Shown: positions 4,300 to 49,069 of the stretch, one piece after another
Numbering within the stretch: position 1 is the stretch's first letter
How the letters are laid out: the number at the start of each line of letters is the position of its first letter
Source of the DNA: Octopus vulgaris
Lineage: Eukaryota
Reading direction: 5' to 3'
Assembly (NCBI GenBank): GCA_951406725.2
Contig: OX597817.1
Span: forward strand, 172,298,001 to 172,362,000
Length of the DNA: 64,000 nt
The notes under the pieces: model-generated
Database searches by the model: none
What the model saw: only the letters and a program-made list of their open reading frames with translations
What the model was told of the DNA's origin: nothing
Program-made: the position numbers and the translations under genes

Positions 4300-6700
4300 A
4301 GTTGGGGACTCGCTGGTGGATCCTGCTGAACCATTTTCATATTCTTCCGTAAGGGAAGAGATACTAAGGAGGACTTCCAATTCAAGGCAAAATTAGTTTG
4401 CTACACTTTTCAATAACGATCAACTGACAGAAAACCTACTCAACGTCTTCGTAGAATGAAATCAACAAATAGAAGAGTCTTATCTTAAGGAAATTTCCTT
4501 TGGCAAGTTACCTCATAGTACTCAAACACTACTTTCAATTGGCAGATTTGGCAGATGGTATTATGGAATTATCATCTAGAGAGTCTGTAAATGCTTTGCC
4601 ATCCATTTCTTCAGAATTACATATGATGAAGGAAACTTACGAGAAACAATTTAAAGTATTAACAGACAAGATCGAAAGTCTTCAACTGGGAAAAGATAAA
4701 CGCTCTTATAATAGAAATAATGCAAGATGGCGTAGATGATTGAAAAGTTTCAAGAAAAACGCTAGAAAAATGAAACTAACTTTAAAGGATGATGAAATGA
4801 AGGCTTTTCAAAGCATAAAAGAAAAACTGTGTGTGCAACACTCTTAAACTATCCGGTTCCTGAAGCAAAATTATCGTTGGTAGTTGATGCTTCCGATGTT
4901 GGAATCGGTAGAGTTTTACAACAGTTTCATTGTGGTTCTTGGCAACCATTATCCTTCTTTTCAAAAGCATTCAAGCCACCAGAAACGAAATACAGTGTTT
5001 TCGGCAGAGAATTGTTGGCAGTTTACTTGTCAATTAAATACTTCAGACATCTTCCTGAAGGTAGGTCATTTACATTATTTACTGACCATAAACCATTTAC
5101 ACATGCACTAAAACTTCTTCTGAAAAATATTCTCCCAGAGAAATTAGACACCTTGATTATATTTCACAGTATACTGTGGATATACGGTATACCAAGGTTG
5201 TTGAAAATTCTGCATCTGATGCACTTTCTCGAATGAATGTTGATGCATTAAGTTTATTAAGCACTATCAATTTAGAAGAAATGTCTAAAGATCAAACTAC
5301 TGATAAAGAATTTTCTTTATATAAAAATTTCAGTTCTACTTATTTGAAATTCAAATTATTGCCTATTCATTCTTGTAAATTACATATTTGGTGTGATATT
5401 TCTACTGGTTTTTCTAGACCATTTGTGCCTGAAAGACATAGAAAAATTGTTTTTTCTATTTTTCATAAATTATCTCATCCTGGTATTGGAGCTTCATTAA
5501 AATTAATATCGAGTCGATTTGTTTGGCCTGGTATGAATAAGTATATTCGTTCTTGGGTTCAATCGTGTATGCAGAGTCAAAAAGCAAAAGTAAATCGTCA
5601 CATTAAAGCACCATTAGATACTTCTGCAAATCCTGATGCCAGATTCCAACACATTCATATTGACATAGTTGGACCATTACCTCCAGTGGAAGGTAATATT
5701 TATTTGTTAACATGCATAGATCGTTTTTTGCAATGGTCAGAAGCCACCCAATCAAAGAAATATCTGCAATAACTATAGCAAGACCTTTATTTACCAATAG
5801 GATGTCTAGAATCGACATTGACAATAGATTGTGGAAGACAACTTTGAGTCTACACTTTTTGCAGAATTTAACAAATTGTTGGAAATTCATAGAATTCGTA
5901 CAACTTCATATCATCACAATCTAACGGCATGATAGAAAGGTTTCATAGGCAGTTGAAATCTTCATTAAGAACTTATTCTGAATCTAGCGGTTGGTTAGAA
6001 GCTTTACCAGTGATATCGTTAGGAATCAGGAGTGCTGTTAAAGAAAGTTTACAATATTCTCCTGCTGAACTTTTGCACGGAACAACATTAACTTTAACTG
6101 GTCAAATATTTGAAGAAATCAATTCTTTTAATGAGGATATTAACAATTACGTAACCCGGCTCAAGAGATTTCTTTCTGATGATCCTTCTTTTACAAGTAA
6201 ATTACAAAATATTAAAAGTTTCGCTCCTTCTGATATTAATTCTTGGACTCATGTATTTGTACGTAATGATGCCAGCCATCACTCACTGAATTATAAATAC
6301 CCTGTACCTTTTAAAGTTTTGTCAATTAAAGATAAAACTCTGACTTTGGATATGCATGGTAAAAAAGAAATTGTCAGTTTAGACAGAGTTAAAAAAGCTT
6401 ATTTCGATCAGTCTTCATATCATGAAAATAAATATTTGAGCAACACATTTCAAAAGAAACTTGAAAGAGAAAAATTCACAAGACAGCAAACCTCAGTTGC
6501 GAAAAAGATCCACAAGTCAATTTTAAAATCACCTACAAGCGAAAAGAAAACTAGAAGGGGTAGAATTATACATTTTCCCAAAACACTTCTCAGTTTGTTT
6601 GAATATATTCCACATGAACTTTTATATTCCAAATAGGAAACATATAAAAGTAATGTTACACAAACAGTAACCAAACCGGCTATAAAAGTATTTTTAGAAA
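4300..6700 (+). mobile_element. Decayed Gypsy/Ty3 LTR retrotransposon (gag remnant, RNase H, integrase), frameshifted, RT largely deleted
   Basis: RNase H VVDASDVGIG..PLSFFSK..YSVFGRELLAVY (4829-5236); integrase zinc finger HKLSHPGI..CMQSQ; core HIDIVGPLP and IERFHRQLK; GPY/F-like YPVPFKV..VSLDRVK; RH-then-IN order is Gypsy. Confidence 0.9.
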
Positions 6701-23794: not shown

Positions 23795-25594
23795 TCAACG
23801 AGGAGTTTGCATATTAAGTTGTGTTTGGAATTTTTCAATAAAGAGATTCTCCTTGTTAATTCTCTCCTGTGTGGTGATCCCGTCTTTACATTGGTAGAAG
23901 GGGAATATATAGAATTTGGGGTTTAAGTCTTTAGCACATGAGTCTAAGTGGTCACTCAGTGGAATTTGTCGGTATTCCGGGAGATTTATTTGTTCTTTAT
24001 GCACCGTTACTCGTTTACGTAACGGGAGACTCGTTTGTCCCACATAATTATGTTGGCAACCAGCGCATGTGAGAACGTAGATAAGGTTCTCGGAGGAACA
24101 GGAGAAGTTAGTCTTGATTTTAAACTTCGTACCTTGTTTGAAGGTAAATTCAGAGCCTTCAAGTAGAAAGGGGCAGGTACCACAGTTTGAGCGTGCACAT
24201 TTTTTTACTGTTGGGGGTGGATGTGGTGTGTGAAGTTTGGCATTTGTCAAGAGTTTTTTTAAAGATTTGTGTTGCCTTTTGCATTTGAGGATTTTGTGTG
24301 TATTTATAATGTTTTTCATTTTTGGGTCTGTTGACAGTAGACTGAGGTTTTGTATGATTGTGGTGTATGCTTCGATATTTTTGGGGTTGTGGGTGGAAAT
24401 GTATGGAAGTATTTTGAGGTTGTGTGTGGTGTTAGGTTGGGTGGTTATCAGTGTAGTGTTGTCTAGTTCTTTGGCGCGTTTTATTCCATACTCTATAAGG
24501 GTGGAGGGATATTGACGTTGTAATAGTGTTTTTTTGAGGTCTTGAAGGCGTATTTCTCGTGTTTTTGGATCCGAGACAATGGTGCATACCCTTTTAGCTA
24601 AATTGAAAGGGATATTTGTCTTGGTGTGTTTTGGGTGGCATGAACTAAAGAGGAGGTATTGTTGTGAGTCTGTAGGTTTGTGGTAGATGTCTGTTATGAT
24701 TTGGTTCTTAGGTGTTTTTATAATTAGGAGATCAAGGAATGGGAGATGATGTTTGCTTAATTCCATAGTGAATTGGATGTTAGGATGTATGTTGTTTAGT
24801 ATGGTTTTGAATTCCAGGAGTTTTTCATAAGGTTCTTTCCATATGATGAAACAATCATCTAAATACCTTTTCCAGTTTTCCATTAGGTAGGTGTGGAAAA
24901 CATGTCCAAATTTCTGGCTTGATATTTCATAGAGTGACAGTTCGAAGTAACCCATTATGAGGTTCGCAAGGACTGGTGCAGCCTTGGTACCCATCGCAAT
25001 GCCACATTTTTGACGGTAGTGTGTGTCGTCGAAGAGAAAAAAATTGTTTGTCAGAATGAACTTAAGAGATTCTGTAATAAAAGACTTGTTAATGCGGTCA
25101 GGGAATGTCTCTGGGTGTTTTTCTAGCCAGAAGTCAATTGCCTCTATACCATACTCATGTGGAATGTTGGTGTAGAGGTTGATGACATCAAAGGATACCA
25201 GGAGTGCCTCCTCGTTAACTGTTTTCGGGAGGTGTTTGAGCATGTCCAGATCATCCCTAATGAAACTTTTGATGTGGGTAAGGAAAGGTTTCAAAAGGAT
25301 GTCTAGGAAGTTACTCAGGCGGTGTGTTTCACAGGAGGTACCAGCCACGATGGGCCTTAGTTTTAGGTCCTCCGGTGCTTTGATGTTGATGTGGATGTCA
25401 GTGGAGAGTTTGCAGGCTTCGGTGATGTATTTGTTTTTATGGATTTTAGGAAGGCCATAAAAAAGGCTGGGCTTGCATTTGAAAATGGTGATATAATCCC
25501 TTTCTTTTTCTGTGAGTCCCTGACCGTGTTGGCGTATGAGTGTGGTGAGGTTTCTGATTGTTTTTTGCTGTTTGTAGTTGTTAAATAACCTCAT
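23795..25594 (-). CDS. Penelope-like reverse transcriptase + GIY-YIG endonuclease (599 aa open frame, N-terminus probably missing)
   Basis: FYGLPKIHK, LRPIVAG, LVSFDVINLYTNIP, GIAMG, RYLDD, LPFLDL, YHKPT, SSCHP; Cys linker CARSNCGTC; NLIYVLTC..C..NYVGQT..R...H and C-terminal E..FI...LN of GIY-YIG. Confidence 0.95.
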   Translation of the reverse strand: MRLFNNYKQQKTIRNLTTLIRQHGQGLTEKERDYITIFKCKPSLFYGLPKIHKNKYITEACKLSTDIHINIKAPEDLKLRPIVAGTSCETHRLSNFLDILLKPFLTHIKSFIRDDLDMLKHLPKTVNEEALLVSFDVINLYTNIPHEYGIEAIDFWLEKHPETFPDRINKSFITESLKFILTNNFFLFDDTHYRQKCGIAMGTKAAPVLANLIMGYFELSLYEISSQKFGHVFHTYLMENWKRYLDDCFIIWKEPYEKLLEFKTILNNIHPNIQFTMELSKHHLPFLDLLIIKTPKNQIITDIYHKPTDSQQYLLFSSCHPKHTKTNIPFNLAKRVCTIVSDPKTREIRLQDLKKTLLQRQYPSTLIEYGIKRAKELDNTTLITTQPNTTHNLKILPYISTHNPKNIEAYTTIIQNLSLLSTDPKMKNIINTHKILKCKRQHKSLKKLLTNAKLHTPHPPPTVKKCARSNCGTCPFLLEGSEFTFKQGTKFKIKTNFSCSSENLIYVLTCAGCQHNYVGQTSLPLRKRVTVHKEQINLPEYRQIPLSDHLDSCAKDLNPKFYIFPFYQCKDGITTQERINKENLFIEKFQTQLNMQTPR

Positions 25595-25672
25595 AGAAAA
25601 TGTTATTGTTAAGCATGGAGAACACTAGGTGTTTATAAAATTCCGTGTCCATAAGGACCACAGCACTCCCTT

Positions 25673-47988: not shown

Positions 47989-48310
<322 letters not shown>

Positions 48311-48313
<3 letters not shown>

Positions 48314-48605
48314 CATCAGTGGCAGACGCCATTAGAAAAACTTATATCTATTTGCAAAGGAGCCTTCACTTTCATCGCTACCTGGTGGTTACCGCCCGTT
48401 GACGAGGGACAACAATCCCGAAACTAGTTCGAGCGTATCACTCAGGCTTGCGAGGAAGGGATGGCCTCCCTTTGCAAATACTCCAAAGACACAGATATTG
48501 TGTCTAGAGCCAGCTAGAGACGAAGATCTCTTGGGGCTATAAAGCTACAGTAACACCCCCTCCCCAATGTGGTTAGCCATGATAAGATGGCTTCTATACT
48601 GTACA
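48311..48605 (+). mobile_element. ~290-nt structured non-coding element with hammerhead ribozyme (retrozyme-like or solo pLTR) in (TA)n
   Basis: HHR at 48393-48435 sits on a ~50-bp imperfect stem (48349-48398 pairs with 48430-48480); additional hairpins; sharp (TA)n boundaries. Confidence 0.7.
48393..48435 (+). ncRNA. Minimal type-I hammerhead ribozyme (C3U variant)
   Basis: CGCCCG-UUGACGA-GGGA-caacaa-UCCC-GAAAC-UA-GUU-CGAGCG; palindromic AACUAGUU stem III. Confidence 0.78.
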
Positions 48606-48618
48606 TTATATATATATA

Positions 48619-48688
<70 letters not shown>

Positions 48689-49069
48689 CATGTACATACA
48701 TATATATAGTAACTAGATACAAATTCTGAGCATGCTCAACGACTAATTACACTTACTATAATATTGAATTTGAAATTGTAAATACCAGGAATAGGTTTAT
48801 GTAGTAGCTAAAAAGTGCACGAACTCCAGTTCGTTGTTAGACAATTTGACGTCCGTCAAATAGTGATAAGCATCCAAGTTACAATGTCACCACGTTATTT
48901 CAATCTATTATTTGAGTTTCAGTTTGTATTATATTTTCCTTCACGCAGTTCAAACTTAGCTCGTGACGAAAGCAAATGTTTCTTAACTCAGAGACCTGAA
49001 TGCGTGTGGAGTCGATGCTACGAGTGATTCATGATATATTTTCAGTTTTTCATTATTTTTATTGTTAAG

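Follow-up and report, generated by a model that had tools for sequence, protein, structure and literature searches.

The insert described here, which lies in a 64-kb stretch of Octopus vulgaris DNA (hereafter the window), is very probably a truncated copy of a non-coding, hammerhead-bearing non-LTR retrozyme with a unit of 357 nt, likely copied in trans by a Penelope-like (PLE) reverse transcriptase-endonuclease, most likely one of the lineage that we call PLE-A. By the features examined, namely a hammerhead, a short non-coding unit, tandems, presence in many copies, target duplications and a self-paired predicted circle, the family is a non-LTR retrozyme; ribozymes in consecutive units were found at the level of the family, and the window copy is itself a partial monomer. 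Earlier publications describe the class and propose that it derives from PLEs; the insertion anatomy of the copies is what is added here.

When the 295-mer first delimited in the window was searched against its own genome, a 357-nt unit repeated head to tail was seen across 30 loci; positions within this unit are given below with the prefix u. The 62 nt that follow the 3' border proposed earlier lead back to the first base of the insert. Hence the element size of about 290 nt in the original prediction was too small, the window copy being without 57 nt of the unit; it lacks the second of the two fixed 3' ends described below (site 2) and the 45-nt tail. The GC-richer insert between two (TA)n tracts was borne out by composition and repeat positions. 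Both tracts belong to the target (Table 1), and microhomology with (TA)n makes the ends of the copy uncertain by 1–4 nt. Its 3' end, at site 1, would mark the start of reverse transcription. The insert had been taken for a monomer of a retrozyme-like family: the family membership stands, the full monomer does not, as the copy is a truncated piece. The complementarity reported between its ends (agacgccat / atggcttct), with a pairing probability of 0.41 in the linear 295-mer and 0.0003 in the full circle, is apparent because the copy is truncated, and vanishes in the full unit. As it holds a single ribozyme, the window copy alone could not give a unit circle; it is a dead-end fragment inside a microsatellite.

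Table 1. Features of the retrozyme copy and of its target site in the window.
Feature	Position	Strand	Basis or remark
5'-truncated retrozyme copy	48310..48609	+	u357/u1 to u299, 300 of 357 nt
Left (TA)n tract, belongs to target	about 48254..48309	.	repeat scan
Right (TA)n tract, belongs to target	about 48610..48708	.	repeat scan
3' end at site 1	48597..48609	+	TTTACA in family, one substitution in window copy
Type I hammerhead, HH9-like UAC bulge in stem I, 6-nt loop II	48386..48440	+	Rfam HH9 alignment, family alignment
Core UUGACGA	48399..48405	+	U3 paired with G8; U3 in 36 of 37 copies
Minimal palindromic stem III (ACUAGU) and GUU	48423..48429	+	predicted cleavage after 48429
Long imperfect rod bearing the ribozyme at its tip	48349..48480	+	about 40 pairs in MFE
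Short hairpin	48488..48504	+	pair probability about 0.6 in full circle

Judged by its sequence, the 357-nt family is young. An exact 24-mer just past the cleavage site matched the genome 376 times (reversed control, 0), which is a lower bound on copy number, and the 295-mer yielded 1615 candidates, the best 40 of which are 97–99% identical. With at least 376 exact matches and with partial tandem copies present, the sequence is not single-copy. The unit is closed, since 28 of the 30 copies that read past site 2 run on into the unit start, the two exceptions being one end and one internal jump. It carries no ORF: the longest frame that stays open when the unit is doubled has 68 codons.

The type I layout of the hammerhead predicted at the tip of the rod was confirmed by the sequence and by alignment with Rfam Hammerhead_HH9 (RF02275). 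Stem I (48393–48398 / 48430–48435) contains one C-A mismatch, stem II consists of four pairs (GGGA/UCCC) with the loop CAACAA and is followed by GAAAC-UA-GUU, and stem III is self-complementary, as had been claimed. The full-length HH9 match, at 48381–48451, reached 31.2 bits (E 1.6e-6 for 141 nt) against a gathering score of 52, and was confined to the + strand. No Rfam match at the gathering level was found anywhere in the 64-kb window, and a search of nine loci at E 0.001 did not detect the hammerheads of PLE-A or of the two sister families described below. The unit shares with RF02275 the UAC bulge in stem I, a CAA-type loop II and the core layout, and differs from it, besides the score, in C3U, in GUU and in a stem III that is five bases shorter. 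The prolongation of stem I into an imperfect helix and the additional hairpin (gacaca-gatat-tgtgtc) are both present. The fold of the 295-mer has a z-score of -4.8, with none of 200 shuffles as stable; folded as a circle, the unit reaches -105.9 kcal/mol (z -5.0, 100 shuffles) with 64% of it paired, and stems I and II form in this predicted circle at a probability of 0.78–1.0. The antisense strand is equally stable (-109.9 kcal/mol), so folding energy alone cannot choose the strand.

The ribozyme is off consensus at three points: the pairing of U3 with G8, the C-A mismatch in stem I and a costly stem III, the closure of which in a monomer is predicted to take about 6.5 kcal/mol. Because U3 is nearly invariant in the family (Table 1) and the stem I mismatch is fixed (37 of 37 copies), hammerhead activity in this 357-nt family may be low. 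A natural hammerhead variant with an identical core is mentioned in PMC7151607, and short palindromic stems III are described as cleaving poorly as monomers and well as dimers (PMC4209133, PMC7229834).

Two sister retrozyme families were found beside PLE loci. The 360-nt one is 57% identical to the 357-nt unit (2889 candidates, 95–97% identity among the best), and the 358-nt one, which is older, is 65% identical to it (2643 candidates, 89–92% identity). Across the three families the 3-8 core pair is C-G, U-A or U-G, the older 358-nt family having the canonical C3-G8; U3-A8 is a described PLE hammerhead variant (PMC4209133). Stem III is self-complementary in all three families and in PLE-A. In an alignment of 13 natural copies (3, 6 and 4 per family), 88.7% of cells are paired in the named hammerhead structure, both partners change in 8 of its 17 pairs, and its pairing score is 0.437 compared with at most 0.143 for slid partners, all of this covariation coming from three lineages only; the number of double-change pairs in the same alignment was not above that of shuffles (89 of 500). 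Compensatory changes thus keep the ribozyme fold across the sister families, which answers the possible objection of missing covariation. RNAalifold recovered the hammerhead region alone from the three-family alignment, with the core partly mispaired and the outer rod missing, so that covariation in the rod is not supported.

The copies bear the marks of PLE-type insertion, that is, two 3' ends, inverted 5' partners and an AT-rich target. They were counted on 100 of the 376 matches, those that come first along the genome (contigs 1–5) and comprise 98 segments at 85 loci. The 3' ends of 54 segments lie at u292–303 (site 1), those of 38 at u337–350 (site 2) and those of 6 elsewhere, so that two sites about 45 nt apart, neither of which is the cleavage site, take 92 of the 98. 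Two further samples agree with this: 29 of 30 ends fell at the two sites in a sample picked on the ribozyme (window included, one place counted twice), and 24 of 26 in one picked on another part of the unit (four duplicate places dropped). The 5' ends of the 98 segments are scattered, without a common start point. An inverted 5' piece occurs at 36 of the 85 loci, and its outer end also lies at either fixed site in 35 of 48 rows, where pairs with the 24-mer in both halves count from both sides. Flanking repeats of 9–16 bp accompany 10 of the 14 loci with an inverted piece and 9 of the 36 plain ones, compared with 1.6% of shuffled pairings, a count that omits 35 loci with (TA)n flanks. Finally, 35 of 92 ends adjoin (TA)n, and the ten bases that follow are 86% A+T.

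Anole Poseidon (PMC11167929) and EN+ PLEs of the Neptune/Nematis type (PMC8557442) are likewise described with two 3' ends 40–45 nt apart and AT-rich or (TA)n targets, as well as with partial tandems, inverted 5'-truncated copies and a hammerhead upstream of the tail. The retrozyme unit differs from these elements in that it has no ORF, is closed at 357 nt and carries a canonical rather than a minimal hammerhead. Two 3' ends and inverted 5' pieces recur in both sister families (loci L107–L118 and L119–L133).

GIY-YIG candidates number in the thousands in this genome, and the PLE-A lineage is the most likely candidate for the helper of the 357-nt retrozyme, an assignment that we make with modest confidence. 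PLE-A, which is intact and young, has an open RT and GIY-YIG frame of 771–781 codons in 13 of 16 loci, which were picked for long frames. Like Neptune and Nematis elements (PMC8557442), it has a CxxxxCxxC motif ahead of the nuclease, and the pLTR contains a minimal hammerhead with U3-A8 and a palindromic stem III. The 3' ends of PLE-A fall at two sites 40 nt apart, in 22 and 6 of 28 loci (one spurious match dropped). The tail motifs shared with the retrozymes, which are short and were chosen after the fact, are TTTACA at site 1 and ATTAT at site 2, both as in the 357-nt family, and a CTC-N5-6-GAG hairpin between the two sites, which PLE-A shares with each of the three retrozyme families, one degraded copy excepted. 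This hairpin arises in 0.14% of PLE-A tail shuffles and occurs twice in 4.7 kb of PLE-A; two other PLE lineages lack it at their 3' ends. Compared by BLAST with the window and with 46 loci from the PLE search, the unit matched sister retrozyme families only and no pLTR homologue, and (TA)n stands at the end of all 13 full PLE-A loci, a stronger bias than that of the retrozyme ends; both points count against PLE-A as the sole helper.

According to PMC11167929, a purified PLE protein cuts AT-rich DNA and extends both strands, and the PLE RT starts at two adjacent internal sites which define the genomic tail. We tentatively propose that a circular ribozyme RNA mimics the tail of the intact PLE-A and that the telomerase-related RT rolls round this circle from two fixed starts, the two elements forming a matched helper-parasite pair. 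Since the copies carry the PLE tail signature and the genome holds a young intact PLE with matching motifs, the in vitro assay used for the anole PLE is applicable to the pair.

In PLE-A (L091–L103, e.g. L099:120-3784), an upstream frame of up to 479 codons, which gave no convincing Pfam match, overlaps the RT-EN frame in the -1 register. In 12 of 13 copies the overlap contains the sequence T TTT TTA, which may indicate a programmed -1 frameshift; no stable structure is found downstream of it, and an ATG follows 16 codons on. Another PLE copy, L104:1321-4483, belongs to a third lineage with a different 3' motif and has a 766-bp inverted 5' piece that is 100% identical to its own 3' end, which makes the insertion very recent.

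What kind of RNA serves as the template can be judged from the way in which the copies cross the cleavage site. As 97 of the 100 matches run at least 5 nt across it, the main template is something other than a cleaved linear monomer. Among the 98 segments, 39 are longer than one unit, the longest being 896 nt, or 2.5 units. The assembly contains seven exact two-ribozyme tandems, all at separate places, and the same search found no long arrays in it; further tandems may be hidden from this count by the exact matching or by assembly collapse. Of 100 5' ends, 3 fall at the cleavage site, against an expectation of about 3, and hence there is no 5' pile-up that could be taken as a sign of cleavage in vivo. 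Since neither a long master array nor a shared 5' start was found, rolling on a circle explains the copies more simply, and we favour a circular RNA template, short of proof.

The most serious alternative, although an unlikely one, is that an uncleaved linear multimer, or repeated template jumps, provides the template for the same PLE-type mobilisation, the ribozyme being weak or vestigial and no circle being formed. The absence of a 5' pile-up fits a circle, but fits equally an RNA that never cleaves; furthermore, PLE insertion in vitro did not need cleavage (PMC11167929), and 8 of 9 frog elements did not cleave (bioRxiv 10.64898/2026.07.22.740005). However, a lineage with linear templates only needs long master loci, yet none of the seven exact tandems are adjacent while well over a third of the segments exceed one unit. 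The lack of a common start among the 5' ends also argues against a linear multimer, and the ribozyme core is preserved across families that are 57–65% identical. Three of the longest segments (L176, L216 and L249) stop within 2 nt of the cleavage site, a small, after-the-fact hint of cleaved templates. A comparison of repeats within loci was dropped, as it cannot tell a circle from a tandem master. Among the sequencing runs listed as containing the unit, none is on record as RNA; contigs of four runs presumed to be RNA cover most of the unit without joints, but contigs cannot show ends or circles and so speak for neither reading.

With a circular template, the following cycle may be proposed. 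The few loci with two ribozymes would be transcribed; by pairing with each other through their palindromic stems III, the two hammerheads would release one unit, which would then be ligated into a circle. The PLE protein would bind the tail region and nick AT-rich DNA; cDNA synthesis would start at either of the two fixed sites about 45 nt apart and run past the cleavage junction over varying distances of up to 2.5 units, and second-strand priming would yield the inverted 5' pieces. The cleavage, the dimer mode, the circle and the identity of the helper are inferred parts of this cycle.

The copies might also be solo pseudo-LTR fragments of an unsampled autonomous PLE, which we consider very improbable. 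Two 3' ends, inversions and target duplications are indeed marks of truncated PLE copies (PMC8557442), and at locus L181 a PLE RT fragment lies about 100 bp upstream of a retrozyme copy. Nevertheless, the read-throughs past site 2 close the unit (28 of 30) rather than enter an ORF, and the unit carries a canonical hammerhead with tertiary motifs rather than one of the minimal PLE type. In two overlapping samples, of 60 and 150 loci, matches to a PLE ORF were found at 1 and 2 loci respectively, in two cases about 1 kb off, so the copies are not all joined to a PLE ORF, as the original prediction had envisaged for a solo pLTR. The RT fragment at L181 belongs to an older PLE family (about 90% identity) with a 3' end of its own, and L181 is ruled out as the autonomous parent, because none of the 19 other copies of that family carry the unit. 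The fragment itself (L181:228-1259) is decayed and is joined to the 5' end of the retrozyme in a microsatellite, either by a template switch or by insertion beside an old copy.

Least credible of all is a repeat of satellite type, or one mobilised by Helitrons, in which a hammerhead-like motif happens to occur: a young Helitron-like repeat contains a stretch 85% identical to u228–296, but the shared piece is shaped like a retrozyme insertion (a short inverted piece, a direct piece up to site 1 and a flanking duplicate) and is without the ribozyme, while the retrozyme family has target duplications and 5' inversions, no hairpin-CTAG end and no long arrays. A Helitron origin was consequently rejected by end structure, and the transfer ran from the retrozyme to the Helitron-like repeat. 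This non-autonomous repeat (L134–L145, L006:1858-2060 and L026; 1574 candidates, 98–99% identity) ends in a 3' hairpin and CTAG, is tandem in some cases and carries the fossil retrozyme insertion; in L026, a new retrozyme copy occupies the matching site. A viroid or viroid-like replicon was rejected on account of the hundreds of integrated DNA copies and of the Rfam hammerhead on the + strand only, and the term viroid-like applied earlier to the element holds as a likeness of fold alone.

The metazoan non-LTR retrozymes of PMC7229834 (mussel, 350–390 bp; axolotl, 331/353 bp) likewise consist of a non-coding unit of 170–400 nt with a canonical type I hammerhead, a GC content below 50%, a self-paired predicted circle and target duplications longer than 4 bp. 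Stem III of the octopus unit resembles that of axolotl HHR_Amex1, with one pair and a palindromic tetraloop (PMC7229834). In contrast to those retrozymes, the present family occurs mostly as scattered partial copies, the longest seen being 2.5 units, and not as arrays; it has a U3-G8 core, and its two fixed 3' ends and inverted 5' pieces are unmentioned in the main text of that report. In frogs, where retrozymes are regarded as non-autonomous PLE derivatives (bioRxiv 10.64898/2026.07.22.740005), intact PLEs similarly co-occur and monomers are dispersed over the chromosomes. The frog link is one of co-distribution and pLTR homology, whereas here it is one of insertion anatomy and tail motifs, without detectable pLTR homology. 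PLEs were named as candidate movers of animal retrozymes in 2020 (PMC7229834); the frog study adds the co-distribution and pLTR homology and calls the mechanism unresolved, and its main text deals with no mollusc, tail or initiation.

Neither of these two main texts mentions cephalopods or a tail, and we found no title on cephalopod retrozymes or retrozyme tails in the openly accessible literature searched. Retrozymes are extended to cephalopods, where they are apparently undescribed, with three families of different age. The results bear on which enzyme moves animal retrozymes and on whether the circle is the template. If the helper-parasite reading is true, a matched pair for animal retrozymes can be read from a genome and tested with one purified protein.

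The window contains two further elements. A 609-codon Penelope-like RT and GIY-YIG frame at 23795–25624 on the - strand, which does not belong to the PLE-A lineage, has a (TA)n end and, about 740 nt downstream, a hammerhead-like motif with a palindromic stem III. Broken frames at 4796–6636 (+) resemble the RT/RNase H and integrase of an LTR retrotransposon, as judged by eye from the translations. Outside the assembly, words of the 357-nt unit occur at shares of 0.63–0.84 in sequencing runs under five organism labels, and the family may therefore be common to related species.
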